NCBI GenBank assembly: GCA_020632635.1
Contig: JACKFE010000002.1
Span: 495,625 to 559,624 of the forward strand
Source of the DNA: Nitrospiraceae bacterium
GTDB lineage: Bacteria > Nitrospirota > Nitrospiria > Nitrospirales > UBA8639
Direction: 5' to 3'
Length of the DNA stretch: 64,000 bases
Part shown: positions 23,857-50,341 of the stretch, in pieces
How positions within the stretch are numbered: the stretch's first letter is position 1
How the letters are laid out: each line of letters opens with the position of its first letter
Notes under the pieces: model-generated
Database searches by the model: none
Told to the model about the DNA's origin: nothing
The model's input: the letters and a program-made list of their open reading frames with translations, nothing else
Translations under genes and position numbers: made by a program

Positions 23857-24205
23857 GCAGGCGGGGGGGCTGGGCCATCCTTCCCCCCCAAGTACCGTTT
23901 TTCGAAAAGAGATCATCCTATGATGGTTATGATCGACTGGATTATCTGTAGTGATTCGGGTGGAATGACTGTTTCCCAGTCTTCTCGCCCAGAAACTCCT
24001 GAAACACCCTTGAGAATAAACACCATTACACGAAATCAATCCTCGAATTCTCTCATCGCCTGCGACCATCGGACTCAACAAAGCGGAACATCGTCCACCA
24101 AACGTGTTCGGTATCTTTCTCACGGGGGTTCATGAAAAGCAACTGAGGAGTAAGGAGAAGTATGTATCCCTAATTTCGTCCGGACAAACCCAAGGAGAAT
24201 CGTAC

Positions 24206-29385: not shown

Positions 29386-29892
29386 ATGGCAAGACTGCAC
29401 TCCCTTCCACGCATCATCACCCTCATCAGCCTGCTTACTGGCATCGGAAGTTCCCAGGCTTTGGCGGCTGATGTGAGTCCAAATATCCAGGATCGGTATT
29501 CTTCTCCATCAAAGGGGAGAGTGTTGTTGCCATCGGAGAAGCCCCGAACGCCCAAACAGCCCCCAACGATTGAACAACGTTTGGATTATCTGACGTCGAA
29601 AATAGCAACCCTGGAGCAGACCGTTACCACCCTTCAGAGTCAAGTCATTGTTCAAACCCAACAGATTGCCCAACTGCGTCAAGTCATTTCCGTGCACTCA
29701 TCCGGCGCCGTCACGATACAAGCTCCCAACATCCTCAACATCTCTGCCGGCAGTACAGTAAAGCTGGAAGCGAGTTTGGTCGATGTCAAAGCCGGGCTGA
29801 CGGGCGTGCATGGCGTCTTGAAGGCAGATACGGTTATTACCACGAATGTGATCTCGCCATCCTATTCACCTGGCGCCGGAAATATTTGGTAA
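29386..29892 (+). CDS. Secreted coiled-coil protein with a short beta-helix/spike-like C-terminus (paralog of 43966 and 45476)
   Basis: Signal peptide (…GIGSSQALAADV). Heptad region LDYLTSKIATLEQTVTTLQSQVIVQTQQIAQLRQVI. C-terminus VTIQAPNILNISAGSTVKLEASLVDVKAG... Confidence 0.65.
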   Translation: MARLHSLPRIITLISLLTGIGSSQALAADVSPNIQDRYSSPSKGRVLLPSEKPRTPKQPPTIEQRLDYLTSKIATLEQTVTTLQSQVIVQTQQIAQLRQVISVHSSGAVTIQAPNILNISAGSTVKLEASLVDVKAGLTGVHGVLKADTVITTNVISPSYSPGAGNIW

Positions 29893-30439
29893 ATCAAAAA
29901 GTCCGACAGTCCCTAAAAATCTAAGGATTCAGCACCAGCATCACACCTCGTTGCACCAGTAGAACTATAGCACCGCTACTGACGTTGACCGTATCATTGA
30001 AGTCGATCCCCCGAACGGTTCCTTGCCCAACTCCCCTAAATGGCACAAACCAGTTGTCCACCTCTACCATGGAGCGGAGGGAGGCAGGAATACAGAGCCC
30101 CCCACTCATTGGGAATGGTAGTGGAAAATGTATAATCCATACACATGCCAGACATCCCTGTCGCAGTAACCGTATTGGTTGCGAACCGGAACACGACCAG
30201 TCACTCAATCTCAAAAATTTTAGTTGTTGATGATGACGAAGACATTCGTTCCGTCATTAGAGAAATCCTTCCATGGAGAAGGTGACAAGGTTGCCTTGCC
30301 GCCTTCGGTGAAAAGGAGGCGGGATGTTTGGGGACAGAAATTTTTCATAGTGTCTTGCTGGATCCGATGCGGGAAAATAAAACGATGGCGTAGGGGTCAA
30401 CCTAGGACTTCCAAATATTTCGAACTCAAAACCTGTGGA

Positions 30440-31258
30440 TTAAGGGAGGGGAATCTCTCTGAGGACAGGGTTACCTTGATTCTGCTTGATGGCCTCCTCC
30501 TCAACCCTATCAGCCTCTGTCTGTGTTTGATTCTTCCCTGACATTGGCGGAATGGCTGCCGGAGGCGATTGATCTTCCTGAAGCGGAGAAGGGTTTTCTT
30601 GCCCCGGCTGAAAGCTTTGGACAGGAGGCCAGCCTTCCTGCTCCTTGGGGGTATATAGCCGATGCACTTCTTTGTTTATTTCTTCTACAACGTATTCATG
30701 CCTCAGAGCCTTGGAGGAGCCGGTTCCCGGAGTGTCGTAAAGGATATGGCCTTTCCGGATACTCACAACCGGCAGCCCATCGTTTCCATATACCAGATCC
30801 TCGATAATCCGAAACCGTCCAGACGGACAATCCACTATAGGACAATCAATGGCTGTATTCTGATGAACAAACAGAAGATCCCGGCTTCCTACCTGGAATT
30901 GGGGTATATGGGAAACCTCCAAGTACCGGCCATCGGATGCCTGTCCGCCCAAAAATCGCAGCGTTAAATGAGTCCCTTCTGCAGAACGCCCTTTCAGCAA
31001 ATATTCGATTCGATAAGTAACATATGTCGAGGGTACAACATTGGGAGCATCAGGACTTTCTCGACTCTCACGAAATTCCAGTTTCTCCACCGTTCCCGAA
31101 AAAATAAATCCGGCCTCTTTCACCATGTAGGAGAGGGACGGTTCCGAGCCCGGCTCCCTCATCACCCCCTGGCTATACCCAGGATGTCCCAGTATCAGCG
31201 TCCAGGCTACCACAACCAGGATGAGTGGGGATCCATAGGCAGGCCTCGCATTACACAT
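30440..31258 (-). CDS. Secreted protein, paralog family A (CPxVDCxxGRFR domain plus a P/E-rich tail)
   Basis: 272 aa with a signal peptide. TYVTYRIEYLLKGRSAEGTHLTLRFLGG...DCPIVDCPSGRFRII aligns with gene 32620..33780. Confidence 0.7.
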   Translation of the reverse strand: MCNARPAYGSPLILVVVAWTLILGHPGYSQGVMREPGSEPSLSYMVKEAGFIFSGTVEKLEFRESRESPDAPNVVPSTYVTYRIEYLLKGRSAEGTHLTLRFLGGQASDGRYLEVSHIPQFQVGSRDLLFVHQNTAIDCPIVDCPSGRFRIIEDLVYGNDGLPVVSIRKGHILYDTPGTGSSKALRHEYVVEEINKEVHRLYTPKEQEGWPPVQSFQPGQENPSPLQEDQSPPAAIPPMSGKNQTQTEADRVEEEAIKQNQGNPVLREIPLP

Positions 31259-31443
31259 GGCTCAAGGCTCCTCGGCAGCCCCATCTGTTGTGAACGGTCA
31301 ACATAAAGCGATGTTTCTCATTGAAAAATTGTACGCTCAACTCCTGAAACAGCTCAACATTGTCATCCCATTCACCTCCAGAGAGCGGGTAGAACGAAGA
31401 TCTACCCGCTCCCTTTGGTTCATCCAAGTCAGAGGACGTGCCA

Positions 31444-32532
31444 CTAATTGATCCGAATCCCCACATACGAGGAATTATTCGCCTCATTGCTTTCCGCAAT
31501 GGCGTTATCGGGATCAATGATCGCGCCTATGTGGTAATTAGCCCCACTCGTTAAATCATTGGGAATCGTAAGAGTGGTATTTTTCGTGGTATACACGGTG
31601 TTTCGACACACCGAAACACTGCCGGTGCCAATATGCCGGTCCCAGGTCGTAATCAGATCATTGGTTGAAATATAGTATTTCACTGGAACATTATTCTTGC
31701 ATCCTGATCCCAAGTTTTCATACGACATTTCAAGGCGTATTGGTTGGCCTTTGTTTACACGATATCGTGGTTCGCCTGCATCATTGAACGAAGACACCAC
31801 ACTCGTTCCCGCCGAATTCCAAACCCTGGTCCGTGCATGGGTGCTGTATTCTCCACTGGATCCGGTCCATCGCCAATGGGCGATGGCCACATCATTGGTA
31901 TTGTTATCGTTTCCGTACAGATCGACGGCGCCGTTACTGGCATCTTCTCCGGGATAAGCATACGCGGTAGAGCCGTTCGCATGCATATGGGTGCTATCTG
32001 AACCCATCGCGTTATAGGTATAGGACACGTGCTTCAGCCCAAGCGCATGGCCCAATTCATGAACGGCGACCGTCTGAAAGGAGCGAGAACCTCCTCCATA
32101 CCCCGAGAGGGTCTTTTTGTTATGGGTATAGTGGTAAGGCGTGGTGTTTCTAAAGACCACATCCGCTTCAACCAGATGCCCGGTCAAACAGGTATACCAA
32201 TAGTAGGCCACGGCCGGAGCATTCAGGTTGTCCGTCCACCAGACTTCATTTTGGAAATTCCCCTTTCCCACCCCCGGTTCGTTATAGCTCAACGTGAAGG
32301 TAAATTTGCTGGGATTTTGGTTCCAAAGGTTAATTGACTCCGTCAAGGCATTTCTCCAGGGTCCGGCCGGGAATCCTGTACCGGACGCTCGCATCTGCAC
32401 CGAATTAGATCCCCATTTCTGTGTGATCCCGGCACATTTAATTTTCTCGTATGAATGACCCACCGCCGGGGAACAAACCGTGACCAGTAGAGACAACAAC
32501 ACAAAATGTTTGATTTTCATTTCTTCCTCCAT
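31444..32532 (-). CDS. Secreted metzincin-type zinc metalloprotease with a C-terminal CARDB-like domain
   Basis: Signal peptide. HELGHALGLKH (HExxHxxGxxH), with NAMG downstream. The C-terminus ends ...IIDPDNAIAESNEANNSSYV, typical of CARDB. Confidence 0.75.
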   Translation of the reverse strand: MEEEMKIKHFVLLSLLVTVCSPAVGHSYEKIKCAGITQKWGSNSVQMRASGTGFPAGPWRNALTESINLWNQNPSKFTFTLSYNEPGVGKGNFQNEVWWTDNLNAPAVAYYWYTCLTGHLVEADVVFRNTTPYHYTHNKKTLSGYGGGSRSFQTVAVHELGHALGLKHVSYTYNAMGSDSTHMHANGSTAYAYPGEDASNGAVDLYGNDNNTNDVAIAHWRWTGSSGEYSTHARTRVWNSAGTSVVSSFNDAGEPRYRVNKGQPIRLEMSYENLGSGCKNNVPVKYYISTNDLITTWDRHIGTGSVSVCRNTVYTTKNTTLTIPNDLTSGANYHIGAIIDPDNAIAESNEANNSSYVGIRIN

Positions 32533-32619
32533 CAGTCGAGATAATGATGTTCAAAGTGAAATGGCTTAAACTTTATGTCCTAATCAATTCTGAGATTCTG
32601 CGCATGAACCCAAAGGATT

Positions 32620-33780
32620 TCAGGGTTGGAGATTTCCCATAGGCCCTGGATCCTCCTCGCCATCGAATAGCATATTTCCTTCCAACGGCAGGATTTCCTC
32701 TTCTTCCGCTCCTCCCGACTCAATCCCGCGTGGAATGACACGAAGAGGCTTTTGGATTTTAAGATTCGGAAGTAGTGGCCGTTGAATTTCCAAGTTCGGT
32801 TTGATCTGCAAATTGGGCTTCAATCCGCCTGGAGGCCCTTCTTTGAACACGGGATTCATGGCATTTTTCATCAACCATTCAGCTTCTTGTTTATCGAACT
32901 CATTCAAAGGGGCAGCCTCCGGTCGCTCAGGCGCCACTCGCATAGTGGGAGCCTGAGGAGAATGAGGGCGAAGTTTCAACGCCTGGCCTGGCCGCATACT
33001 CTGGACCGGTTTCAGCGCCGCGAGTTTTTCCGGCCGGATTTTGGCTTTTTCCTGGGCCACACGATCTCGGAATTTGAGCATATTTAAATGCTCCCCTGGA
33101 ATTCTCAACTGTTCGCCTTGGTTATATTGCCCCTTGCCTTGTTCTGCTCCCTCCGCGTCATCAGGGTCAATTTCAAAATTAAACGGCAAATTGCCGATCT
33201 TATTATTCATCACCTCAGGCAGCCGATGTTGTTTGCCAAAGAAGATATTTCCTTGAGCTGTCAGTCTGACTTCATGCCCGTCATTGGTAAACATGTGATT
33301 ATTGATCACCCGGAAACGCCCCTTGTCGCAGTCGACCAAAGGACAGTCCGACTCTCCGTTACTTTGGACAAACACCAAATCCCGTTCCCCCACATCAAAC
33401 AGAGGGGAATTCGACACAACCAGAATACGGCCATCCTTGGCCGGTCCACCCAAAAAGCGCAGCGTTACGTTTTTACCTTCGGTGGCTTGTCCCTTTTCGA
33501 TATTTTCAATTTGATAGGTCACAAATGTTTGGGGCAGCTCGCCTTCTTCCGATTCGGTTCCTTGAGCCATCCCGTATTCCACCTTCGAAACCACTCCTTG
33601 AAAAATCAGTTCGGCCTGATCGGTCATGGTCCTCAAGCTTGTTCGCGGCGGTTCATGGGCATGCGCGACTGGGTTGAAGCAGGCGACTCCTGCCACTGCC
33701 AATGCCGTGATCCATCCCATGGTGGAGATAGCTCTTCTTGTCTGACTGTGTTCTCTAACCATTGTGTTGCTCCTTCTCAA
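32620..33780 (-). CDS. Secreted protein, paralog family A, with a C-terminal LQIKP repeat, IPRGIESGG motif and acidic tail
   Basis: 386 aa. TFVTYQIENIEKGQATEGKNVTLRFLGG...DCPLVDCDKGRFRVI. Tail: KPNLQIKPNLEIQRPLLPNLKIQKPLRVIPRGIESGGAEEEE. Confidence 0.7.
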   Translation of the reverse strand: MRRSNTMVREHSQTRRAISTMGWITALAVAGVACFNPVAHAHEPPRTSLRTMTDQAELIFQGVVSKVEYGMAQGTESEEGELPQTFVTYQIENIEKGQATEGKNVTLRFLGGPAKDGRILVVSNSPLFDVGERDLVFVQSNGESDCPLVDCDKGRFRVINNHMFTNDGHEVRLTAQGNIFFGKQHRLPEVMNNKIGNLPFNFEIDPDDAEGAEQGKGQYNQGEQLRIPGEHLNMLKFRDRVAQEKAKIRPEKLAALKPVQSMRPGQALKLRPHSPQAPTMRVAPERPEAAPLNEFDKQEAEWLMKNAMNPVFKEGPPGGLKPNLQIKPNLEIQRPLLPNLKIQKPLRVIPRGIESGGAEEEEILPLEGNMLFDGEEDPGPMGNLQP

Positions 33781-34463
33781 TGAGTGATTTCATCATGAGA
33801 CACCTGTGTCTCTGTCCATTTTCTTTTTCTGCTTCACCAATCCCTGACAACCCCAGGGAATCAACCTGAAACTTCCTCAGGCAGAAAGAGGGCCGGTGGC
33901 CCCCGAGAACCCTTCCGACACGAATGCATGACAGTTTGGCTATTCATGAGTTCCCTCACCGACGCTGTACTGCGTCCAATTTGGTATGCCTGTCGGTTAT
34001 TTTTCGTTTTTCAAGTGGTATGTCGCTCTCCCTTTGATTTTGGTTCAATGATTTTTTCGTATTCACCAACCACCAGGCATTATGCCTTTATCAATTTTCA
34101 TACCAATCGAAAAACCCCAAAAAATCCGCAAAACGGAGGGTTCTTCTTGCCGGTCTCTCTCGAAAAATTCCCTTTGAGATACAAGTCGTATCTTATGGGA
34201 TACGAACCAACGCGATTGCCGACGGGATCACGATTCCAATACACCTGGACCTTGCCGACGATCTTCTTTGGGACGCCCTCTGTTTTGGACAACGGTCTTT
34301 TCAAAGACGAGTCATTCACTCTCCTCATTAATTGGAGGCTGATATCTTTCACCTTCCTTCCCATGATCCATATTGATACATTGCATCCATCGATCTGGAT
34401 TGTTGGACAATTCAAAAATCATTTGATGTAACGCATCGCCCTGTTCTCCCCAAGACATTCGGC

Positions 34464-36185
34464 ATGGCAAGGATTGTGACTCACCAGCACTCTCATCCCT
34501 TCAGAGTCAATCTTGGAATTGGCTTGGTTCTTCTCATCGCTGTCCTAATCGTTACCTGGCCTTTAGCCCTTCATTGGAAACAAACGGTAGGATTAGGCAC
34601 CGAACAAGAAGCGACAGTTCCACTGTTTAATGCCTGGACTCTTTGGTGGGTAGGCGATCGCGTAGGGCATGGATTCGCCCACTTTTGGCAGGCGCCCATT
34701 TTTTTCCCCAGTGAAGGGACCTTCACATTTTCTGAACCTCAACCTCTGACAGGCATGTTGGCATTCCTGGCCAGCCGCTGGCTGCCTTCTCCAATTGCCG
34801 CATACAACGGAGCGATTTTATTCTGTCTCTGGCTCAATGGAGTATTCGGGTACCGGTTGGGCCGAGCCTTCCAGATTCCCTGGTGGCCGGCCTTGTTGGG
34901 TGGATTACTCTTCATCAGCCTCCCGGTCACACAAAAATTCTTGGGAGTTCTTCCCCTCATTCCCTTGTTCGGTGTGTTATGGGCGCTGGAAGGATTCATC
35001 CGATTCGGGCGCGAAGGATCATGGCGGACAGCCATCTGGACCGGCATTGGCTTACTCGTTCTCCTCTTCACTTCCCAACAACTGGCACTCTTATTCGTTC
35101 TGTTCATGTTCCCAGCCGGGCTCCTGGCCTTGGCCCAACAACATATGTCCTCCGGAGCGGTTCTCAAATTGGGAGGGGTCGCCATGGGGGTTCTGTTGGT
35201 GGCCGGCTGGTATGCCTGGTATCCCATAACCCTACATCAATCATTAGACTTCACACGGTCTGAACATCTGGTCAATCTGCTCTCCGCCCGTTTTTCGGAT
35301 TATCTTTCTAAGCCTATTTCCGGCTCCTTTCCCTTCCCTCCGCGGGAAGACCTTCTCTCGGACACCGGAGGCCTCTTCCCGGGATTCGTGCTGATCGCAA
35401 TGGCAGGTTGGGGGGGGATTCAGGGGATTAAAAGCAGCGAGTCATACGGATGGACGTGGTATGCCATCGGAAGCGGAACCATGGCTTTCCTGCTGTCGTT
35501 GGGCACCCATTCCGTTCTTGACGGAGGAATGACTTTGGGGTTCCTACGGGATTGGGTGCCTGGGTTTCATGAATTACGAAGTCCGTTTCGATTTGCTATT
35601 TTTGTGCAGATATTCCTGGGCTTGTTGGGTGTGCTTGGGATTCGGCATCTCTATATTCACAATACGGCTTGGATTCATCGGATCATACTTGGGCTTATCA
35701 TGGTGTGTGGGATGGCCGAAAATCTGTCAGTCCCCCAACCACTGGCCCATGTTCCTACTTCATCGCCTTCTCCGTGGACAACATGGCTGAGCACACATCC
35801 AGAACGCCGGATTCTCGCCCATGTCCCCTTTCCCTCCGGCCTTCACGTCTCCGATTATCAAATCGAAACCACCCGGATGCTGGCGCAGACGATCCATCAC
35901 AAACCTCTTATTAACGGATACTCCGGATTTTTTCCCCCGGGCTATATCCAATTCCAATCAGATATGGCCAAGAATTTCCCTTCTCCGTTTTTGCTCTGTT
36001 TTCTAGGCAACGAACTGAAGGTCGACACGCTCGTTATCGACCGATCCTGGCAGGAAGCCCATCGCGACCAAATGGAAGCATTTCCTGAACTATCGAAGAT
36101 TGCTTACGATGACGAGGATGTGGTGATTATCGAGATCGGACCGTCGCAGGAGACCTGTCCTCCGTTAACAGCCCCTCTACCCTGA
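34464..36185 (+). CDS. Polytopic integral membrane protein, possibly a GT-C-type glycosyltransferase
   Basis: 573 aa with more than 10 hydrophobic segments followed by a soluble C-terminal part. It is convergent with a polyprenyl-phosphate-type GT2 gene. No specific family recognised. Confidence 0.5.
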   Translation: MARIVTHQHSHPFRVNLGIGLVLLIAVLIVTWPLALHWKQTVGLGTEQEATVPLFNAWTLWWVGDRVGHGFAHFWQAPIFFPSEGTFTFSEPQPLTGMLAFLASRWLPSPIAAYNGAILFCLWLNGVFGYRLGRAFQIPWWPALLGGLLFISLPVTQKFLGVLPLIPLFGVLWALEGFIRFGREGSWRTAIWTGIGLLVLLFTSQQLALLFVLFMFPAGLLALAQQHMSSGAVLKLGGVAMGVLLVAGWYAWYPITLHQSLDFTRSEHLVNLLSARFSDYLSKPISGSFPFPPREDLLSDTGGLFPGFVLIAMAGWGGIQGIKSSESYGWTWYAIGSGTMAFLLSLGTHSVLDGGMTLGFLRDWVPGFHELRSPFRFAIFVQIFLGLLGVLGIRHLYIHNTAWIHRIILGLIMVCGMAENLSVPQPLAHVPTSSPSPWTTWLSTHPERRILAHVPFPSGLHVSDYQIETTRMLAQTIHHKPLINGYSGFFPPGYIQFQSDMAKNFPSPFLLCFLGNELKVDTLVIDRSWQEAHRDQMEAFPELSKIAYDDEDVVIIEIGPSQETCPPLTAPLP

Positions 36186-36962
36186 TGATGACAACCGTCG
36201 AGTACGGTAGCGGTATAACGTCCTGATTGACTGCAGACCATCTCTCCATCTGATTTTTTTCCCGTCGGCTTTACTCCGGGGAGCATAGGAAATAGGAACT
36301 TCTGTGATCCGCCAATGTTGTTGGGCGATTTTTAACGTCAACTCCAGTTCCATATCGAAGCCTGACTCTTCCAGAGTGATGGCCTCCAGGACTTCCTTTT
36401 TCAAGACCTTGTATCCTGTCCAGACGTCGGTGATCGCCAATCCCGTCAACGCATTGGCGAGGCCAGTAAACATCTTGTTGCCCCAATAAGATATCAATGG
36501 CCACGTTCCCTGCCATTCCCCCAAAAATCGAGAGCCGTAGACGACATCCGCCTGATCAGTCAGCAAGGGCTCCAAGAGACGAGGATAGGCTTGAGGATCA
36601 TATTCCAAATCGGCGTCTTGTACGATTAGGATGCTGCCTTTGGCATTTTGAAATCCAGTCTTCAGGGCCGCGCCTTTTCCTTGGTTCGATGAGTGAACAA
36701 TGACCTGGACAGGCGCCAATTCGGCCAGACACTGATCAGACGATTCCCCTCGTACATTTTCACGACCGCAGCCAGGCCCGAACCGCTCCTGAAGCCACTC
36801 CCGTGTCCCATCGTTGGATCCATCATCCACGATAATCAGTTCTTTGAAGATCTCCGTTTTTTGAACTCGCTTCACAATCGCTTCAATGGTTTTTCGCTCG
36901 TTATAAACCGGCATCACGATACTAACCAGTTGTATTTTTGATTTTTTTTCGTTTTGAACCAT
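36177..36962 (-). CDS. Family 2 glycosyltransferase (polyprenyl/dolichyl-phosphate sugar synthase-like)
   Basis: VSIVMPVYNERKTIEAIV, IIVDDGSNDGT and QDADLEYDP are classic GT2 (GT-A) motifs. Confidence 0.8.
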   Translation of the reverse strand: MVQNEKKSKIQLVSIVMPVYNERKTIEAIVKRVQKTEIFKELIIVDDGSNDGTREWLQERFGPGCGRENVRGESSDQCLAELAPVQVIVHSSNQGKGAALKTGFQNAKGSILIVQDADLEYDPQAYPRLLEPLLTDQADVVYGSRFLGEWQGTWPLISYWGNKMFTGLANALTGLAITDVWTGYKVLKKEVLEAITLEESGFDMELELTLKIAQQHWRITEVPISYAPRSKADGKKIRWRDGLQSIRTLYRYRTRRLSSSG

Positions 36963-37145
36963 GGCCGGTCGCCTTCCGACTCACAAATACAAATAATGAA
37001 ACTCTTTTGGCTAGCCTACCATGAACTTTTCCATAATTCTCTTTTCCGTCATTGCTTTTTCCGCAAAGTCGACTACAATGATCCCTCGACGGTTTGGGAC
37101 GGTCCCACTTTCTGTTCATGGGATTTTTCACCACAGGAGTAGGAC

Positions 37146-37667
37146 ATGAATGCACGACTTTCCTCAATCCCTTCATCGCATAGTCAGAGTCGTACGAAGA
37201 GCGTGCTACGCCGATTGAGCCGGGCCAAGGCGCTTCGCTTTTGTGGAACCCTGTGCTTCCTCCTTACGGTCATGGGATGCCGTGGTTCAGATGCTCCCCC
37301 GGTGTCTCATGGTGGTCCGGTTCACGATCACGTCAGCTTGGTCGATACCCTTCGAACACAAGGCTTCACCGTTGAACCCACGGGTCCGGTCACACAACCA
37401 TTTTTCCCTGTACCCGGACAAACCCTCCACGTGGAGGGTCAGGACATCCAAGTCTTTGAATTCTCCGATGCGGACGCCGCCAAATCTCAGGCTGAGGAAA
37501 TTTCCCCGGATGGAATGACTGTTGGACAAACGGCTGTGCAATGGGTTCATCCTCCTCATTTTTTCACCGCAGGAAAAATTATCGTCTTGTACGTGGGCAC
37601 AGACCGTAAGTTTCTCAATCAAATAAAGACGGTGCTCGGGGAACCCATTACCCAACACGTCCCTTAA
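37146..37667 (+). CDS. Hypothetical lipoprotein
   Basis: 173 aa. N-terminal basic region then CFLLTVMGCRG (lipobox-like). No family recognised. Confidence 0.55.
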   Translation: MNARLSSIPSSHSQSRTKSVLRRLSRAKALRFCGTLCFLLTVMGCRGSDAPPVSHGGPVHDHVSLVDTLRTQGFTVEPTGPVTQPFFPVPGQTLHVEGQDIQVFEFSDADAAKSQAEEISPDGMTVGQTAVQWVHPPHFFTAGKIIVLYVGTDRKFLNQIKTVLGEPITQHVP

Positions 37668-37770
37668 CCCCATGCCAATATTTAAAAAGTATAGAAAGAC
37701 TCAGCCAACACTCGCGGGATACCGTGCAGATATCCCGGTCTATCCATCATCAAACTCAAGGAGGTTGCAC

Positions 37771-38298
37771 ATGAGAGGGAAAATCCTGACCGGATTTCTT
37801 GCTCTGATTGCTCTTGGATTATTGGCCCTGAATGTTCAGGTCAGTAACGCACACAAATGGGGCAATTGGCATTGGGACAAAAGCACCATCAACATGTGGG
37901 TGTATGGGAGCAAACAAACCGAATCGAAAGCCGCCATTAAAGATTGGGATGACCATACCGACCTCAAGCTCCCATTAAAATCATCGCATACCGATGTCAG
38001 TGTCTTCGGGGCCAATGCGGGCAATACGGGCTGGGCGGGCCTGGCCTCCATCAAAGAATACGAATTTGATTGGTGGGATAAATGGTGCTGGTGCAGGATT
38101 AAACATGCCCATGCACAATTTAACACCTATTACAATTATTCAAGCGCCAGCGTGCAGGGTGTGCAATGTCAGGAAGTGGGGCATACATTCGGGCTGGACC
38201 ATAGTGCAACCAATGGATGCATGGCGAAAGGCTATTACAGCCCCAACTCGAATTACACCAACAGTCACAATTGGTCTGACATTAATTCGATGTATTAA
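37771..38298 (+). CDS. Small secreted metzincin-like (snapalysin/M7-M10-like) protein with an atypical QExxHxxGxxH motif
   Basis: ATG at 37771 follows AAGGAGG. Signal peptide MRGKILTGFLALIALGLLALNVQVSNA. The motif is VQCQEVGHTFGLDHS, with Gln where the first zinc-ligand His is expected. Confidence 0.55.
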   Translation: MRGKILTGFLALIALGLLALNVQVSNAHKWGNWHWDKSTINMWVYGSKQTESKAAIKDWDDHTDLKLPLKSSHTDVSVFGANAGNTGWAGLASIKEYEFDWWDKWCWCRIKHAHAQFNTYYNYSSASVQGVQCQEVGHTFGLDHSATNGCMAKGYYSPNSNYTNSHNWSDINSMY

Positions 38299-38357
38299 CC
38301 ACGCAAGGGCACCTGGTAGATCACTCAATGATCGTACACACCACAAGGAGAGCACCT

Positions 38358-39236
38358 ATGAACTCGAACTCTTTCAATCGGTTTCTTCAAGGAACCATTG
38401 CGATCTTGTTTCTGGCCTTTGCCGGACAAGTCGGATATCAATATGCGTTCCATAAACCCGAACCGGTCCTGATGGCGGCCTGGGCGTTTGAACCTCGTAA
38501 TCTTGCAGAGGCCAAAGGGTTGGCTCAAGAGGTTGTTGAAGCCCAAGTTACCAATATTGAGCGTGCCGATGACTTAGTCATTCCTGCTCCGGGAGAGCCC
38601 GGGAATGTTGAACGAATTGCCATTGAAGTCGTCAGTATGAAGGTCAAGGGGGCCATGAAAGGACAGCCGGCCCAAGACATTCAAGTTTTCCGGACGGCTG
38701 GCATTCCTGTCACCCGGAATGACATGCCGAACATGAAGGATGCCCCGCCCAAACCCAGAGGAGCGTCCAATCCCCCCTCTCGACCGACCCCATTCGTGGC
38801 GAACACCATTAACATTCATGATGACCAAGCGTACAAGGTAGGGGAAAGTTACGTCATGTTTTTACGTAATGGCCCTCAAGTCAAGGTAAAAGGCCAAAAA
38901 GTCGCCACAAAAATTCTGTTAAATCCCAGCACACGGTTCCGGGTTGAACCAGACAATAGAATCACCCCAACTATTCCTGACGGACTGGGGCAATCTTTTA
39001 AGGGAAAGGCGTTGCAGCAATTTAAAGCCGACATTCAGCAAATTACGGAACGGGCTCCAATCCCAGGGAAACTTCCTGGCCAATTCGTTCTACCCAAGCT
39101 TCAGATCAAACCGGGTATCCAACCAGGTCTGATTCGGCCAAGAGGCCTAGAAGGGGCACCAGCTCCGGAAGGCATGGAGGAGGAATTGGGGGAAATGGAA
39201 GTACCTACGGAGGGTGAAGCTCCCGAGCTCCAATAA
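38358..39236 (+). CDS. Secreted protein, distant member of paralog family A, with a LQIKP motif, RPRGLEG and an acidic tail
   Basis: ATG at 38358 follows AAGGAG. Signal/anchor segment TIAILFLAFAGQVGYQYA. Tail: LPKLQIKPGIQPGLIRPRGLEGAPAPEGMEEELGEME. Confidence 0.65.
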   Translation: MNSNSFNRFLQGTIAILFLAFAGQVGYQYAFHKPEPVLMAAWAFEPRNLAEAKGLAQEVVEAQVTNIERADDLVIPAPGEPGNVERIAIEVVSMKVKGAMKGQPAQDIQVFRTAGIPVTRNDMPNMKDAPPKPRGASNPPSRPTPFVANTINIHDDQAYKVGESYVMFLRNGPQVKVKGQKVATKILLNPSTRFRVEPDNRITPTIPDGLGQSFKGKALQQFKADIQQITERAPIPGKLPGQFVLPKLQIKPGIQPGLIRPRGLEGAPAPEGMEEELGEMEVPTEGEAPELQ

Positions 39237-39272
39237 TCCTGACAGGCTCATTATTTCACCTTGTTATTTACC

Positions 39273-39311
39273 TGAACCCCCTGGGAAATTATCATTTCCC
39301 AGGGGGTTCAG
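39273..39311 (+). terminator. Strong hairpin downstream of gene 38358..39236
   Basis: 17-bp perfect stem ctgaaccccctgggaaa / tttcccagggggttcag around a short central loop. No obvious U-tract follows. Confidence 0.55.
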
Positions 39312-40205
39312 ACTTCTCAGGGTATCAGCGGAAAAACCCATCTGAACCGTTTACGAGAATTCATATTTCTTTCCCTGTCACAATGGAAAACTCACACAGA
39401 TTCCCCTTGTATACAAACATAAGATCCGTCAACGCATTGACAACACCCGTCAAACTGTCTGAGTCAGTGATTCACCAATCCAAGGGTCAGTGTTGTGAGC
39501 ACGGATTCATTACTGGCTTTTCGCACTCATCACACCCATTGGCCTATATTTGGAAGACTGAGCCCATCAACATCACCAAACAGTACATTCCCATGGGTTT
39601 CGCTTACCTCTATGACGTCCCCAATCTCTCATCCCCTGCCTTTGCTTTTGAATACCTCCGTTCGGAGGCTTCTTCGTTAAAATCTCACTTGGCATCAAGA
39701 TTGCTTTTTCTTTAATCAGAAAAAGGGAATTCCCTTATTTCTAGGTAAAGAGATGCCAAAACCCCACAAATGGGGAATTTAACAAACACTGATTTTGTAT
39801 TAAAAATTTTTGCTGAGGACTCAATGACAAAGCAACAAGACTCTAAAAAGCGGACGTTCCTCCTCTCAACATGGGGCCACCTGGGCCTTTCAGGGCTCAT
39901 TGGGGAATGGGAAACAAGACTAGCCAATAAGTATCCTGCGCAAGGCGGCCAAACTGTTCGGCGACCTGCGCCACTCAAAAAACCAAAACCCGTAGACCCC
40001 GCGTAGAATCCCAAACTCTCTTTTCTCCCCCAACTCATCACACTCTTTTATAGCTTGCCCCACAATCGGCCAGACTTCGCGCTCTTAGTCCACCCTTGAA
40101 ACCCATTCAGCACCTTCGCCGCCAAGGATTGCGCATACTGACTAATTCTCGTAAGGTATACCTCTAACCTATCTAAACAGGTGTTTTCTCGAGTCCGAGA
40201 GAGTC

Positions 40206-41390
40206 GTGAGAATCAATATGAACCGCTTCCTTGTAACCCTCATCATGGGTGTCTGTTATCTCGTAACCTCCGTCACGGTGGGAGTCGCAGGACAACCTAA
40301 TATTGTATTAAGTCGTGCCCTCCACTTTCCTGCTCCAGATGGAACGTCAATCGCCCTCAGTCCCGGAAAATATTTTATCGAACAGGCCGGATCTACCACA
40401 CTGCGACTGATCCCTGAGGGAACCTCTCCCGGGGCTGCCCAGGTGATCCACGCCGATGCATTAACTCATGAACAATATGAATTGTTCTCACCCATGGCTC
40501 TCACCCGACCGCAGAAAAATAACGAATATCTCATTGAACTGCTCATGCCTGGTGGCATTCGGCTAGAAGCCAAAGGGTCGACTCATGCTCCCCCATCCGG
40601 CCCCTCGCTCAGAACCGAACCTGTGCCCACAGCCTCAACACCAGACGTTCCACCTTCGCCTCACGTTCCGGTCGTCGAAACTCCGAAATCTGTTCATCCC
40701 ATCGCACAAGAGCCTATATTAGAAGATTCGATGGCCACAGCAAGCTCTCCTAGCATTACTTCAACTTCGGTACCGGTTCTTCCGTATCAGGCCCCAGAAG
40801 TCGCATCTCAAGGCAAACGCATCATTGTTGACAAACAAGAGACGGGAAAAGATCCAATTTTTCTTTCAGTCCTCTCCCCGGATCATATCGGCTTGACCAT
40901 TTTTGAACAGCCCGCGCTCTTTTGGTTTATCGGGAATCAAACCGATCATCCCGTAGACGTCATGATCACCGATGAAAATAATACGCAAATGCTCTTGGAT
41001 GTCCGCATGCTTCCGCCCATTCGGCCAGGCATTCACAAAGTTGAACTCAAAGATTATGGGATAAAACTTCACCCAGACACGACGTATCAGTGGAAAATCA
41101 TGCTGCAAGGTTCCACTCAAGGAGAATCTCTGGTCACCAGTGGATGGATCATGAGAATTACGCCACCTTCAAACCTGATCAATATCCCGCAACAGCCGAC
41201 CTTGCAAGCCGCGCCCCTGGAACAATTGATGGAAGCCGGCTTGTGGTACGATGCCTTTTGGGCATTGTCGGAACGCATTCAATCTCATCCTACTGACACC
41301 ATTGCTCTCGAACAGCGTGCAGGCCTTTTTGAACAAGTCGGACTGTTTCCCCCGGCCCAACATGACCGGTCCCATATTCAAGGACCATAG
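40206..41390 (+). CDS. Secreted protein with the shared N-terminal module (divergent) and a C-terminal DUF928-like domain
   Basis: Alternative ATG at 40218 (MNRFLVTLIMGVCYLVTSVTVGVAG). Module: LSRALHFPAPDGTSIALSPGKYFIEQ...IELLMPGGIRLEAKGS. DUF928-like blocks: PALFWFI, TTYQWKI, AGLWYDAFWAL. Confidence 0.75.
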   Translation: MRINMNRFLVTLIMGVCYLVTSVTVGVAGQPNIVLSRALHFPAPDGTSIALSPGKYFIEQAGSTTLRLIPEGTSPGAAQVIHADALTHEQYELFSPMALTRPQKNNEYLIELLMPGGIRLEAKGSTHAPPSGPSLRTEPVPTASTPDVPPSPHVPVVETPKSVHPIAQEPILEDSMATASSPSITSTSVPVLPYQAPEVASQGKRIIVDKQETGKDPIFLSVLSPDHIGLTIFEQPALFWFIGNQTDHPVDVMITDENNTQMLLDVRMLPPIRPGIHKVELKDYGIKLHPDTTYQWKIMLQGSTQGESLVTSGWIMRITPPSNLINIPQQPTLQAAPLEQLMEAGLWYDAFWALSERIQSHPTDTIALEQRAGLFEQVGLFPPAQHDRSHIQGP

Positions 41391-41756
41391 AAGGTTTTTC
41401 ACCGACCAATGTGTTATTCCCTACCTTCCGTTTTTCGTTCCAGGATTTTTTCTCTCCCCTTATGAACACAAGGCGCCCCCGGCCCAGAAGATAATTTTTC
41501 TTATCTGACCTCCCCAGGCTGCAGAAAATCTCTTTCCCCTTCAATTTCTTCTGATAAGCATCGAAAAAAAATGAAATCGTACATTGCAATACCGGGTCCT
41601 TTCCATGTCCACTTCGCCTCAAGTACGCTCCCCCAATCCAAGAAATTCCATATAACAAAGATACGCCGACAATGAACCCTACCCCCTTGATAAACGACTC
41701 ACATGAAATAGGCTCATGGTCCAACGATGACTATTTTTTTTAGGGAGAACCGAACA

Positions 41757-43073
41757 ATGCAACCGCACACCCCCACACCAGCCAATATCCAACCTTCCCG
41801 AAGAGAGTTTCTCAAGAAGGCTGGAATTCTCACAGGTGGAATCCTGGCCTTGGGCCTGCCACTTCCACTCAGACAGGCCTCATCCGCCTTGGCGGCTGCA
41901 CCGCCATCTGATTCCGTCCGTTACGCTTTGGATCTTGGGGGCCAAATCGCAGGCCCGATCATCTCCTTGGATAGTGGATTTACTTCTGGGCAAGTGGTGG
42001 AAGGACGGCTGGGCCAATCTTTGTCTTCCAAGAAACATCTGGCCACCATTGTGCCTGAGGACGTCTTTCTCGAATGTAGAAATAATATGACCAAGGATTT
42101 CTATCTCTGGATCCAACAGGCATTGGGCGAACAGGCGCCAAAAAGAAGCGGAGGCATTCTGACCATGAGCATGGGAAACCAACTCTTGGACCGGCAAATG
42201 TTTACCGACGCGTTCATCACTGAGGTCACGTTCCCCGCCCTGGATCGGACTTCGACCATTCAGGCCTCAATTGGTCTGAAATTGAAGCCCCGGCAATGGA
42301 GCTATCAATCCGGAGGCAGCCAGATAGCCTTTCCAACAGGAGTCAATCTAGGCGGGTGGCTGTCCTCTCATTTCCGCGTCGGAATCTCCGGACTGGAATC
42401 CGCATGCGCCCATATTGTGAAAGTGGACTCTTTGGTCTGGAAACAATCCCTGAGCATGGCCCCGGACAGGCTTTCGTTCACCAGCGGACCCATTCAGACA
42501 CCAAATCTGGTCGTAACTCTCCCTCGCACACAGGCCGGTCCCTTTACCGAATGGTTTAAACAATTCGTCATTAATGGAAAATCTTCCGATTCCGACGAAC
42601 GTTCAGGGTCATTGGAGTTCCTGGCACCTGACCAGCAAACGGTATTATTCAAACTGAACTTTGAACATCTCGGTATTTTTCGGATGTCGCCCATAACCCT
42701 TTCCCCCACCAACGCCACCCCACTCGTCAAAGTAGAAATGTACTGCGAAACCCTGAGATTGACCGAATTCCCCAGCCCAGGACCGGCACAAACGCCCCTG
42801 ACACCGGCAATGGTTCTGGGAGTCTACCGCCACAACCCGGTCCAAAACGCTTGGCATGAAGGCTCGATTACTCAGGAGGGCGCCACACTCCGCTGGACGA
42901 ATAAAGCTGGAGCCACTTGGCGATTGGTACCCGACCTTGCCAACCAGCGGTTATTGGCTGAAGGACCCGATAACCCGTATGCCCAATATGGGTCAAAGGA
43001 ATTCAAATTGATCATGGAAAACGGCTTTATCAAAGGGTTCGCCTTCGGCGGGGGAACATACCTGAAACAATAA
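41757..43073 (+). CDS. Tat-exported protein with two tandem phage tail-tube (gp19/TIGR02241-like) domains and an extra C-terminal domain
   Basis: ATG at 41757 follows AGGGAG. Twin-arginine motif SRREFLKKAG. The pattern FxLDLGG...(E)VVE...KKH...FLEC...FYLWIQQAL...GGILTM...DAFITEVTFPALD...IGLKLKP resembles tube proteins. Paralog of 61223..62314. Confidence 0.55.
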   Translation: MQPHTPTPANIQPSRREFLKKAGILTGGILALGLPLPLRQASSALAAAPPSDSVRYALDLGGQIAGPIISLDSGFTSGQVVEGRLGQSLSSKKHLATIVPEDVFLECRNNMTKDFYLWIQQALGEQAPKRSGGILTMSMGNQLLDRQMFTDAFITEVTFPALDRTSTIQASIGLKLKPRQWSYQSGGSQIAFPTGVNLGGWLSSHFRVGISGLESACAHIVKVDSLVWKQSLSMAPDRLSFTSGPIQTPNLVVTLPRTQAGPFTEWFKQFVINGKSSDSDERSGSLEFLAPDQQTVLFKLNFEHLGIFRMSPITLSPTNATPLVKVEMYCETLRLTEFPSPGPAQTPLTPAMVLGVYRHNPVQNAWHEGSITQEGATLRWTNKAGATWRLVPDLANQRLLAEGPDNPYAQYGSKEFKLIMENGFIKGFAFGGGTYLKQ

Positions 43074-43309
43074 GGTCGCAGACCAAACAAGCATGCATGC
43101 AATCGTTATTCATGCATGGAAGTACGTCATATGATCTGATCAGGCAAAGAAATGAAGATCTGTACTCTCTGCCTCATTTTTACCCCTAGGTTGTTGCTTT
43201 TCACCTGAGGGTCTCAGGACGCCGACCTCATCCTTCAACAATAACTAAAAGAGGTGACGAGAGACACGTTGGGGAATCGTGGAGTGAGCGGGCAAGGAAC
43301 ACGCCAGCA

Positions 43310-43662
43310 ATGACGGCAAAGCATATGTCCATTGATGAATATGACCAATTGCTGCTTCAATCCGGAAACGCTTCAATACTCCTCCTCAATAATAGTGCCA
43401 TGCCTATCAATGGAAAAATTCTTTCCCTGGTTCAGGATCAGCCTCAATTGTATGGTCCATGGCACTTGCGGAGTATCATCACAATCCCGCACAAAATGAT
43501 TGGCACATGAGCATGAGCTGGATCGAACAAGATCAAGCCAGTAATCTGCGAGGAAGCTCCTGGATGTGTGGGCTTTCGTTCAATACATTCTTCTCGTTAA
43601 TTATTTCTCCCAAAACACTCTTCTCTCCCTTTTCATCTCAGTACCGTACGAATTTATTCTAA
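43310..43662 (+). pseudogene. Frameshifted remnant resembling the C-terminal domain of gene 41757..43073
   Basis: Two overlapping short ORFs. LAEYHHNPAQNDWHMSMSWIEQD compares with LGVYRHNPVQNAWHEGSITQEG of the upstream gene. Confidence 0.35.
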
Positions 43663-43965
43663 GTCGGTTCAGACTGACACGGAGTACGGCTTTTCCATCT
43701 GTCTCTTTCTGCGTGAACGCTTGGAATAAATACCTACCTCATTCTTCGTAAATATTGAATCTTGTGCCGAAAAATCTCCTCAAACTGTGGAAATTGACTT
43801 CACACTCGTGACTTGGCCTCTTTACACTAACCGTTAGCAACCCCCACACAATTTCATCCAATAAATGGGCTTGAACCTCCCAAGACCTTCAAGCGACTGA
43901 CTTGAAAAATATGGAAACCCAATGATTCCCCATTCAATCCTGTTCACCCTTGAAAGGAATGACAT

Positions 43966-44535
43966 ATGCGGATACTCATTTTCACGTTCATCGTCAGCTT
44001 GTGGCTTCACGGATCCCTTGCGCATGCGGCTGATCCACAAAACACCAAACAGGTTCTCGAGTTACAACGACAAGTGTCGATCCTCCAACAGGAAGTCACA
44101 CGCCTAACAAGGATCATAGATGCGTCGCCAGACGGCACCATACGCATCACCGCGCCCCAGCACAAACAGGAAACGACAGGAGGCAATGTCCAAACCTCCA
44201 TCAGTGGACAACAGGTCTTGCACATCGGGCAGGCTGTTTCTGAACGGATCGGCACCACACAATCCATTGCAATCGGAACCACCCAGTCTGTCTCTGTCGA
44301 ACAAGATGCGCAGCACACCGCAGGACGCAATGCCATTCACCAAGCGGGTGGCGATCTCACATTGATGGCCGGGAAACGTACGATCATCACGGCGGGCGAT
44401 CAATTGATCCTAAAAACGGGACAAGCCTCGATCATACTGAATAAAAACGGAGATATTCTCCTGCAAGGCAAGGACATCCAAATCAAGGGGTCTGGCCAGG
44501 TCAACATGAAAGGATCAAAGGTCACCACACAATAA
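43966..44535 (+). CDS. Secreted coiled-coil protein with a VgrG/gp5-needle-like beta-helical C-terminus
   Basis: Signal peptide MRILIFTFIVSLWLHGSLAHA. Heptads VLELQRQVSILQQEVTRLTRII. C-terminus: GDLTLMAGKRTIITAGDQLILKTGQASIILNKNGDILLQGKDIQIKGSGQVNMKGSKV. Confidence 0.65.
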   Translation: MRILIFTFIVSLWLHGSLAHAADPQNTKQVLELQRQVSILQQEVTRLTRIIDASPDGTIRITAPQHKQETTGGNVQTSISGQQVLHIGQAVSERIGTTQSIAIGTTQSVSVEQDAQHTAGRNAIHQAGGDLTLMAGKRTIITAGDQLILKTGQASIILNKNGDILLQGKDIQIKGSGQVNMKGSKVTTQ

Positions 44536-44704
44536 GGAGGCTATGGCAGTGAGAGATCGCTCTTGAGAAATGGGGCGACTGCAAACAATGCCATTCTGAC
44601 ACTTATCGCTCAAAACGATTCACGATGGCATGTCGCTGTGTATCGGGGAAGGCAGTGGCTTGTTGATTCTCATGTTCCCCTAGTACAGAAAGGAGTTGGT
44701 ACCC

Positions 44705-45373
44705 ATGAAACACTCATGTCCAACCACCCTCACCCTTCTAAAGAATCTGGGTCTCTCGGCCCTTGTATTCACCTTTGTCGTGGGCTGCTCAACCACACAG
44801 ACGCCCCCATCCGAAATCGCCTCGGTGGAAGAAATCCAGGAGGTCGAAGCGGGCAATGACCCAGCCATGGAGGGAACGGATGCGGGAGCCCCTCAAGACT
44901 GCGTGGACAATGATGAACGACCGGCCTGTCACGTAAAATCCAGAGGACTCGGATTTGTTCCCATTAAGGTGAAAAGTGAAACCACCCAACGATGTCTGCG
45001 CCCGAACGGCGGAAGCACTGCCGAAAATGTCGAAATTATCATGTCGACTTGTTCAGAGACGAAAAGCCGCCGGTGGTACCGGGAGCAAGGGGTGTATGCA
45101 GGCGGGGACAAGATCATCAACTTGAACTCCGGAAAATGTATCGAACGAGTCGGGACCGTCCTGCGACAACGGACTTGCGCCAACTCATCTAACCCCACCA
45201 GTGCCCACAACCAAACTTGGGTCTTTCAAGGAACTCCTCCCTTCGGAAGCGGAGACTTTTTGAAGTCCTGGACATCGGAAGGCGGATGCGCCCGAGCCAT
45301 GAATGCAACGAACGTCCGAATGTCGACGTGCCAAAACGATGCAAACCGACGCTGGTATCAATCGGCCTTTTAA
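44705..45373 (+). CDS. Lipoprotein with a ricin-type beta-trefoil lectin domain
   Basis: ATG at 44705 follows AAAGGAG. Lipobox ALVFTFVVGCS. Three QxW-like motifs (RRWYRE, QTWVFQ, RRWYQS) with paired Cys. Confidence 0.75.
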   Translation: MKHSCPTTLTLLKNLGLSALVFTFVVGCSTTQTPPSEIASVEEIQEVEAGNDPAMEGTDAGAPQDCVDNDERPACHVKSRGLGFVPIKVKSETTQRCLRPNGGSTAENVEIIMSTCSETKSRRWYREQGVYAGGDKIINLNSGKCIERVGTVLRQRTCANSSNPTSAHNQTWVFQGTPPFGSGDFLKSWTSEGGCARAMNATNVRMSTCQNDANRRWYQSAF

Positions 45374-45475
45374 GAGAACCAAATACCTGTCAACCACTTA
45401 GGCAGGAAGGAGGCATTCTCCTTCCTGCCCAGGCAAAACGTGACGTTGGACCTTACGACAAGAGGAGTTTCTCTC

Positions 45476-46012
45476 ATGAGACCATTCCAAATCCCCCTCA
45501 TCGCATTGTTGTTTGCGCTACAATTATCTGTCGCCTTGGCAGCGGATCCCAGCTTTCGGCAGGCCCAGCCGCATCAGATGGCTCCCCAACGGGGCAGCAC
45601 GATTCCTCAATTGCAACTGACACCAGACTATCTCTACCAACAAATCACGGCTCTCCAACAGCAGGTCGTCACCCTTCAAGGTCAAGTAAATCTCCTGCGG
45701 TCCGTGGTTCAGGTTTCTCAAACGGAAACGACGATCCAAGCTGAAAATCTCAGCCTAAAAGCCACGAAGGCTCTAGCCCTGAACTCAGGAAAGGACACCA
45801 CTCTCACCGTTGAGAATGAATTCACACTCACTAGCGCCAAAGACTTGCTGATCAAAAGTGGGAAAACTGCCAACGTGGAAGGTGGCGCCCTTTTGAACCT
45901 CAAAGCCCCACAGGTCAAACTGAATAATGGCAGCAAACCAATGGCCACCGTCGGAAGTATTGTGTCCGGAGGAAAAGTTATCTCAGGGAGTCCAACCATT
46001 TTCGGCCCCTAA
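45476..46012 (+). CDS. Secreted coiled-coil protein with a spike/needle-like C-terminus (paralog of 29386 and 43966)
   Basis: ATG at 45476 follows AGAGGAG. Signal peptide MRPFQIPLIALLFALQLSVALAA. Heptads ITALQQQVVTLQGQVNLLRSVV. C-terminus: LLNLKAPQVKLNNGSKPMATVGSIVSGGKVISGSPTIFGP. Confidence 0.65.
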   Translation: MRPFQIPLIALLFALQLSVALAADPSFRQAQPHQMAPQRGSTIPQLQLTPDYLYQQITALQQQVVTLQGQVNLLRSVVQVSQTETTIQAENLSLKATKALALNSGKDTTLTVENEFTLTSAKDLLIKSGKTANVEGGALLNLKAPQVKLNNGSKPMATVGSIVSGGKVISGSPTIFGP

Positions 46013-46058
46013 GTTGTCCATTATGCCTCGATCACTCAACAAGAGGAGTATGCCTATC

Positions 46059-50288: not shown

Positions 50289-50341
50289 AGCCATGTGGAA
50301 AATCGGGAATGCATAATCACCCACAAGGGGGACTTGGGACA

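Follow-up and report, generated by a model that had tools for sequence, protein, structure and literature searches.

Introduction

Among the known needles of contractile machines are the C-terminal beta-helices of phage T4 gp5 and of VgrG from type VI secretion systems (T6SSs) (PF22178 and PF10106), two proteins that also have a gp27-type hub (Phage_GPD), an OB-fold (Phage_base_V) or a lysozyme domain. To our knowledge, phage tails, T6SSs and extracellular contractile injection systems (CISs) always have their spike, tube and hub proteins made and assembled in the cytoplasm. Here, we analyzed a 64,000-nt stretch of DNA from the Nitrospiraceae bacterium assembly GCA_020632635.1 (contig JACKFE010000002.1, positions 495,625-559,624 of the forward strand; hereafter the window, whose own numbering is used below) and focused on three of its genes, A, B and C, which encode small proteins with a signal peptide, a coiled coil and a beta-rich tail:

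29386-29892, + strand: protein A, 168 aa (open reading frame (ORF) call, ribosome-binding site, family alignment)
43966-44535, + strand: protein B, 189 aa (ORF call, Pfam, family alignment, profile search against the PDB, periodicity)
45476-46012, + strand: protein C, 178 aa from ATG 45476 (ORF call, homologue lengths, alignment, profile search against the PDB)

B and C share with the gp5 and VgrG beta-helix the 8-residue repeats with alternating hydrophobic residues, as well as similarity at the profile level. However, Pfam searches revealed neither hub, OB-fold nor lysozyme in A, B or C, and they are not VgrGs, because Phage_GPD and Phage_base_V are missing; the VgrG of their gene cluster is a separate gene. 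Instead, a putative cleavable Sec signal and a coiled coil precede the helix in chains of 168-189 aa, in contrast to the ~600 aa or more of VgrG, and the three proteins are predicted to be exported by Sec whereas VgrG is assembled in the cytoplasm. The last ~65 residues of A align end-to-end with the C-terminus of gpV-type spikes of CISs and myophages that end in ...SYTPGAGNIW. This tip module is all that the two have in common: A lacks the Phage_base_V OB domain and instead carries a signal peptide and a coil of six heptads. PAAR proteins contain three repeats in one domain, whereas C carries one PAAR-like motif per chain.

Two further groups of proteins are similar in outline. The P22 gp26 tail needle, T4 fibritin and reovirus sigma1 also combine an N-terminal parallel coil that registers three chains with a rigid C-terminal element, as is generally known, but they are virion components without signal peptides, and none has a sequence match or a significant structural match to A, B or C. 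Meanwhile, Lpp and CpoB (YbgF) are Sec-exported and contain a short trimeric coil, and both give weak, coil-only profile matches to the C family. CpoB/YbgF joins its coil to TPR repeats, whereas 15 of 26 C members match TolA_bind_tri (best E = 0.011) and have no TPR; Lpp has a lipobox cysteine, whereas the mature proteins A, B and C start with A-D-P and no cysteine follows the signal peptide in any of the three families. Lpp and CpoB also lack a beta-helix, which is the conserved and informative part of A, B and C.

From the comparisons below, we propose with a probability of roughly 0.55 that the products of A, B and C are needle-like trimeric scaffolds that are exported and pair with secreted proteins of a shared N-terminal module, within an exported, sheath-less tube/spike module.

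Results

Three conserved genes with a common layout

The initial annotation had called three ORFs on the + strand at these coordinates, and all three are there, together with every peptide that it quoted. A and B are each preceded by an AAGGA ribosome-binding site 8-9 nt upstream. For C, the ORF listing opens at GTG 45440; we favored ATG 45476 as the start because nearly all homologues are 178 aa long and an AGAGGAG Shine-Dalgarno sequence lies 8 nt before this codon. A promoter and terminator scan gave nothing above the shuffled expectation.

The shared layout that had been read from the sequence, a signal peptide, then a heptad segment and then a beta-rich tail, was confirmed by family alignments and periodicity tests. 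The N-termini of A, B and C share a basic residue, a hydrophobic stretch and an AxA motif, after which the mature protein would begin with a conserved ADP; the signal peptides were assigned by eye from their n, h and c regions, which are conserved together with AxA/ADP (the slash marks the predicted cleavage) in all three family alignments. In A, the signal peptide (aa 1-27, ALA/AD) is followed by a linker with an invariant DRYSS, a coiled coil (aa ~61-103, nt 29566-29694) and a beta region with the C-terminal tip (aa 104-168), whose last residues are SYSPGAGNIW. B consists of a signal peptide (aa 1-21, AHA/ADP), a short coiled coil (aa ~26-52) and ~14 octad repeats of the VgrG/gp5-type beta-helix (aa 72-187, nt 44179-44526), and has a blunt KGSKVTTQ end. 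C has a signal peptide (aa 1-22, ALA/ADP), a Pro/Gln linker carrying the conserved IPQLQLTPDYLYQQI, a coiled coil (aa ~50-77), ~8 octads (aa 84-152) and a tail (aa 153-178) with a single PAAR-repeat-like motif.

Compared with shuffled sequences, the helical segments of all three proteins exhibited a hydrophobic period of 3.5 residues (p = 0.006-0.015), and a period of 8 residues was found in the beta regions of B (p = 0.002) and C (p = 0.023); the tails of all three gave a strong period-2 signal. Furthermore, natural insertions and deletions keep to heptad and octad units: the inserts in the coils of the C family are exactly +14 or +28 residues, and the deletions in the beta region of the B family are exactly -8 and -48 residues.

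The three genes had been proposed to be paralogous, and comparison of family profiles by hhalign places this above chance, with E-values of 5.5e-15 for B-C, 2.1e-11 for A-C and 1.5e-4, at only 51% probability, for A-B. BLASTP connected A with C (2e-8) and B with C (7e-4) and left A and B unlinked. To judge by these scores, A, B and C are distant paralogues; because the A-B profile match is weak, these two are related mainly through C as a bridge. Hidden Markov models (HMMs) of the three families detected no further member among the 665 stop-to-stop ORF segments of the window, except one remnant:

43310-43510, + strand: decayed B-like remnant (..YDQLLLQSGNASILLLNNSAMPINGKIL..; YDQLLLQSGNASILLL...), hmmsearch with the B profile E = 3.1e-5

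This fragment has neither signal peptide nor coil, lies within a ~900-bp gene-poor gap (43074-43965), and probably represents what is left of a B-like or VgrG-like beta-helix gene that became a pseudogene. At 40-75% identity, the families contain 21 (A), 12 (B) and 58 (C) clusters, and all named sources of the homologues are Nitrospira, Nitrospirales or Nitrospirota. A search of IMG/VR viral contigs at pattern-level sensitivity turned up neither the B nor the C family. A, B and C are real, conserved genes.

The beta regions of B and C match spike needles

In Pfam, B of the window matched DUF2345 (5.8e-6, 26.6 bits; gathering cut-off 30.7) and Gp5_trimer_C (1.8e-5, 25.3 bits; cut-off 30.9), C matched DUF2345 (0.016, 15.4 bits), and A matched no spike domain, giving only coiled-coil noise. 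At the family level, Gp5_trimer_C was found on all full-length B homologues and DUF2345 on 26/26 scanned C members (best 2.7e-7), and homologues of B and C have precomputed matches to PF22178 or PF10106, some of them flagged weak.

The family profiles were also compared with the PDB. The B family matched the C-terminal beta-helices of 9mlp_A (2.6e-7), of the central spike 8kea_D (4.2e-7) and of the VgrGs 7q5p_A (1.2e-5) and 6u9e_B (8.4e-5); 9mlp_A was deposited as 'Cytoplasmic protein', and the B motif GDQLILKTGQASIILNKNGDI aligns with its counterpart there. For the C family, the top six matches were spike proteins with E-values ranging from 6.9e-5 for VgrG 8gra_I to 0.02, the others being 9gtr_q, Gp5 9vzk_q, VgrG 9jg8_G, the Anabaena CIS spike 7b5h_AJ and 7aef_q. 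Profile searches thus recovered the relation to the spike/needle fold that the initial annotation had proposed (B, 2.6e-7; C, 6.9e-5), and whose absence it had named as grounds for rejecting the idea. On this evidence, we regard the beta regions of B and C as homologous to the VgrG/gp5-type needle beta-helix, and the fold as well supported.

The AlphaFold2 monomer model of C (mean predicted local distance difference test (pLDDT) score 68) contains a helix at residues 50-75 followed by an extended, strand-less chain with pLDDT 77-88, which would be compatible with one chain of an intertwined trimer but is not proof of it. The model overlays 7b5h_AJ at 1.6 Å over 74 columns with a Foldseek E-value of 8, a hint only; Foldseek performs poorly on an extended chain that has been isolated from an intertwined trimer. 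The names 'TolA-binding protein' and 'ZapB' that JGI attaches to some C homologues were rejected as coiled-coil-driven annotation.

The tail of C resembles one PAAR repeat

The end of C had been described as a PAAR/gpV-like tip, and of this description only the motif resemblance stands. The tail reads P-x-A-x-V-G-S-x-V-S-G-G-K-V-I-S-G-S-P-T-I-F, resembling one PAAR repeat. The Pfam model PAAR (PF05488) matched neither C nor the isolated tail, even at E <= 10, and a tail-only profile searched against the PDB aligned with the PAAR segment PVSHVGEKVSGGVISTGSPTVHV of Tse5 (8cp6_A) at a non-significant E = 1.3, which was no better than its match to the left-handed beta-helix of ADP-glucose pyrophosphorylase, an unrelated enzyme. 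By analogy with PAAR proteins, it is possible that three C tails could build one PAAR-like cone.

A ends in the tip of CIS central spikes

The AlphaFold2 model of A is confident only in a long helix (residues 62-100, pLDDT 88-96), and the link of A to spikes comes from its C-terminus, a route that the initial annotation had not seen when it grouped A with spike proteins. The family alignment has the invariant terminal residues Y160, P162, G163, A164, G165, N166, I167 and W168. An exhaustive search with the A HMM against 1.84 billion representatives gave 615 matches at E <= 1e-3, and outside the close family nearly all of them cover the last ~65 residues of A at their own C-terminus, with E-values down to ~1e-15 in non-Nitrospira proteins. 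Among the 149 best tip matches, 113 end in PG[AE]GN[IVL][WF]-COOH.

Several of these proteins are spikes in their own right. First, a 591-aa protein (P0231) has Phage_GPD, an OB-fold and a helix and ends in ...SSYTPGAGNIW; another (P0212) was named 'VgrG' by JGI, and three more (P0198, P0157 and P0228) are gpV-like. Second, of the 147 tip matches scanned with Pfam, 17 contained Phage_base_V and 2 contained Phage_GPD, and PHROGs assigned tip matches to baseplate assembly and hub families. Third, 25 IMG/VR contigs (L026-L050) contain spike ORFs that end in the tip motif, most of them ~215-245 aa long with a gpV-like N-terminus. In one of these contigs, L026, the gene order is sheath, CIS_tube with LysM, Phage_GPD, Phage_base_V with the tip, gp25 and Baseplate_J, which is a textbook CIS core. 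Because the same terminus is found on genuine VgrG and gpV spikes, including that of the L026 cluster, we conclude that A joins a coiled coil to the tip module found on CIS central spikes.

Meanwhile, no Pfam model matched the tip in isolated tails or in the tip matches, a tip-only profile found no structure with the YTPGAGNIW tip in the PDB, tblastn of one tip against 50,697 cultured-phage records gave no match, and 'PGAGNIW' was absent from a full-text literature search. Several of the non-Nitrospira tip proteins sit on contigs of only 2-4 kb. The terminus ...YTPGAGNIW is therefore a widespread spike tip with no Pfam model, solved structure or searchable literature.

A conserved cluster with an exported tube, an exported VgrG and N-module proteins

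The initial annotation had described A, B and C as dispersed among module-cargo genes, which is correct, and this arrangement is part of a synteny conserved across relatives. Eleven proteins of the window share a ~120-residue module directly after the signal peptide (N-module; motif ...LLLPDG..LEA.GTYSGIRSRG), followed by unrelated C-terminal domains. Such a combination of a constant N-terminus and variable C-terminal domains resembles the layout of polymorphic toxins; the N-module itself had no Pfam match and no profile match in the PDB. The relevant genes are as follows.

27923-29293, + strand: secreted N-module protein, partner of A (N-module HMM E = 2.3e-62)
40206-41390, + strand: N-module and DUF928 protein that opens the conserved cluster (Pfam DUF928 9.8e-22, N-module match, synteny)
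41727-43073, + strand: Tat-signal (SRREFLKK) tail-tube-like protein, gp19-type domain with C-terminal extensions
46023-48167, + strand: ~700-aa secreted N-module protein, partner of C (N-module match)
53685-54314, + strand: Sec-signal 'mini-VgrG', 209 aa (Phage_GPD 1.7e-10)
61223-62314, - strand: second Tat-signal (SRRGFL) tube-like paralogue
11594-13540: N-module protein, with the module in two tandem copies
15225-17219: N-module protein
22409-23080: N-module protein
48219-50288: N-module protein
50309-52495: N-module protein
52575-53543: N-module protein
54410-57484: N-module protein
57693-59861: N-module protein (these eight, like 27923-29293, 40206-41390 and 46023-48167, by the N-module HMM)

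The tube-like protein at 41727-43073 matched Phage_T4_gp19 at 8.9e-5 (its homologues up to 7.1e-23) and the CIS tube 8bl4_v at 2.1e-4. A twin-arginine motif was present in 8/8 tube homologues from other Nitrospirota, as SRR[ED]FL in 6/8 and as SRRGFL and SRRDFM in the others; we know of no precedent for a phage-tail tube protein exported by the twin-arginine (Tat) pathway. The mini-VgrG corresponds to the first ~115 and the last ~95 residues of the 545-573-aa Sec-signal VgrG of relatives (compared with L001 15365-17086) and, by this alignment, is identified as an internally deleted copy of it. The full-length Sec-signal VgrGs have a very short C-terminal beta-helix, and a Sec signal peptide was found in all VgrG homologues examined. 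No sheath, gp25, baseplate-J or baseplate wedge gene was found in the window.

The order N-module-DUF928, B, Tat-tube, C, one to five N-module genes, Sec-VgrG and further N-module genes is found again, in full or as one contiguous section, at loci of 17 GTDB Nitrospirota genomes and on four further contigs, and is kept across genomes at 45-65% protein identity. The window differs in that the tube gene lies before B, and B and C are separated by a ricin-lectin gene. The product of this latter gene (44696-45373, + strand) is a beta-trefoil lectin of the ricin type whose N-terminus (..FVVGC) resembles that of a lipoprotein; the gene was not seen between B and C in the other loci examined.

The partners of C and A are conserved as well. 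The same ~700-aa N-module protein, as a full-length orthologue of 46023-48167, directly follows C in L005, L008, L017, L018, L019 and L021. In the window it contains a Gln/Ala-rich helical segment and begins ~10-40 bp past C, its start being placed at 46023 or 46050 in an ORF that is open from 45927. A lies apart from the cluster and always immediately follows the gene of a specific N-module protein; in L002, L010, L012 and L014, a full-length orthologue of 27923-29293 is located directly upstream of it. In the window, this protein consists of the N-module, an Ala-rich helical segment and a Gly-rich C-terminal domain, and its gene ends 93 bp upstream of A. Furthermore, the N-module and A are fused in L008, L016, P0111 and P0114, in the order signal peptide, N-module, linker, coil, beta region and SYTPGAGNIW, and these fusion genes lie inside the cluster.

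On a divergent metagenomic contig, L052, C-like and A-like genes lie beside genes for a Sec-signal Hcp and for N-module proteins. The Hcp gene (11429-11968 of that contig) encodes a T6SS_HCP-domain protein with a Sec-type signal peptide. Because L052 has Hcp instead of the gp19-type tube, the link between exported needle, tube and N-module holds for two tube types.

Other secreted genes of the window

Just upstream of the A locus, 24104-27565 (+ strand) encodes a 1153-aa secreted protein with a Pro/Thr-rich C-terminal tail and no Pfam hit. Two secreted matrixin-like zinc metalloproteases, one with CARDB, are located between the A locus and the B/C cluster (31444-32532, - strand, and 37672-38298, + strand). 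The secreted paralogues 30440-31258 and 32620-33780 (both - strand; 33% identity, E = 1e-41), to which 38328-39236 (+ strand) was added by eye, share the motif ...LTLRFLGG..DGR.L.VS..P.F.VG.RDL.FV....DCP.VDC..GRFR and Pro-rich C-terminal tails, and have no Pfam match.

Discussion

We suggest that A, B and C, hereafter mini-spikes, would work as follows. Each would be exported by Sec and its signal peptide cleaved at AxA/ADP. The N-terminal parallel coiled coil would then register three chains, so that the proteins are most likely homotrimers, and would nucleate a C-terminal intertwined triple-stranded beta-helix, the needle type of T4 gp5, VgrG and gpV spikes; the coil would thereby substitute for the gp27 hub and OB-fold, by which a spike is normally held together. 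Their tips differ: that of B is blunt as in VgrG, that of A is the ...YxPGAGNIW tip of CIS spikes, and the short tail of C may cap its own helix. The mini-spikes would belong to a Nitrospirales-specific module that is exported as a whole and includes the Tat-tube, the Sec-VgrG and many Sec-signal N-module proteins. Because this module comes without sheath or baseplate wedge, the mini-spikes would not puncture by contraction and may instead serve as rigid trimeric scaffolds or adaptors. Each would dock or trimerise its cognate N-module protein in the periplasm or on the cell surface, much as VgrG and PAAR proteins hold type VI effectors. Candidate docking sites that would replace the covalent link of the fusions are the invariant peptides that immediately precede the coil (DRYSS in A and IPQLQLTPDYLYQQI in C).

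Several points weigh against this proposal. The Pfam scores of the window proteins themselves are under the gathering thresholds, and A has no spike match in the PDB, by sequence or by family profile, and no octad periodicity in its beta region (period-8 p = 0.8 against shuffles). The coil cores of the mini-spikes have I/V at 'a' and L at 'd' positions, a combination that fits dimers as well as trimers by the GCN4 rules, so that a dimer is equally compatible. The AlphaFold2 monomer models are modest (pLDDT 68 and 65), and Foldseek searches of the PDB and BFVD with the C and A models gave no significant match. In the window, the VgrG is internally deleted and the lectin gene and the remnant interrupt the cluster, so that this local copy may have degenerated in part. 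No export route across the outer membrane was identified. Finally, the contact of the mini-spikes with N-module proteins, tube or VgrG is inferred, as are their trimeric state, final location and biological role.

The most serious alternative, although we consider it unlikely, is that A, B and C act on their own as secreted fibres or adhesins, for example in a matrix, biofilm or surface layer; they would use the spike beta-helix as a rigid rod and be functionally unconnected to tube, VgrG or N-module proteins. The island is indeed rich in secreted lectin-like, protease and glycosyltransferase genes, there is no sheath or baseplate gene in the window, and a coiled coil joined to a beta-rich rod is generally known to be common in phage and viral attachment proteins; Foldseek gave weak, non-significant echoes of sigma1 and of a PVC tail fibre. 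However, such fibres would not be expected in a tight conserved order with a Tat-tube and a Sec-VgrG, with cognate partners and as N-module fusions with A, and the association with an exported tube recurs with Hcp in L052.

It is far less probable that the three genes are non-functional leftovers of a degraded prophage or CIS, that is, C-terminal fragments of VgrG that are still open by chance. The decayed B-like remnant and the internally deleted VgrG in the window would fit such decay, as would the fact that sheath and baseplate genes were not found, but dozens of Nitrospirota assemblies have the ORFs intact and at constant length with invariant motifs, the ribosome-binding sites are present, and the N-termini have conserved signal peptides and coiled coils of a kind lacking in any VgrG. 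The absence of B and C from IMG/VR viral contigs also argues against it. A comparably improbable reading is that the proteins are periplasmic decoys or immunity factors that mimic spike tips so as to bind the type VI or CIS spikes, PAAR proteins or effectors of attacking competitors and render them harmless. That they are exported and spike-like and that related loci contain conflict-type genes (Peptidase_C14, DUF4384 and FGE-sulfatase) could be taken in its favor by pure inference, whereas the exported tube and VgrG and the N-module fusions would be left unexplained; we know of no precedent for such decoys. The least probable reading is that of generic periplasmic coiled-coil proteins (CpoB/'TolA-binding', ZapB or Lpp-like) with a tail unrelated to spikes, since the JGI names of some C homologues ('TolA-binding protein' or 'ZapB') and the weak matches to TolA_bind_tri, Surfac_D-trimer and Lpp are countered by the span of those matches, which cover only a ~30-residue coil at E >= 0.01, by the missing TPR domain and lipobox cysteine, and by the significant and consistent VgrG/gp5/gpV matches of the beta regions.

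The reading of A, B and C as exported scaffolds for N-module proteins can be extended. As a tentative and on balance doubtful extension, the mini-spikes may be needle subunits of an apparatus that has so far gone unrecognised and descends from the inner core of a CIS. Its parts (tube, VgrG hub and needles) would leave by Sec or Tat and come together outside the cytoplasm, with neither sheath nor baseplate, so as to present or deliver the polymorphic N-module proteins, and it would be confined to Nitrospirales and relatives. A literature search returned nothing relevant on VgrG, Hcp or tube proteins with Sec or Tat signals, on CISs in Nitrospira or on DUF928. The fold itself is of a known kind; what the searched literature did not describe is a Sec signal and a coil in place of the hub, within a cluster of tail-derived parts that all have export signals. 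A minimal form of spike is thereby defined, with a coiled coil standing in for the hub and OB-fold, and the minimal needles could serve as small self-assembling trimeric scaffolds. Every tail-like part, that is, the three minimal needles, the tail-tube and the VgrG, bears a Sec or Tat signal, and this is conserved in the 17 retrieved Nitrospirota genome loci without an accompanying sheath. If these parts work together, phage-tail modules would have been re-used for a new type of envelope or extracellular assembly in the bacteria chiefly responsible for nitrite oxidation in soils, oceans and wastewater plants.

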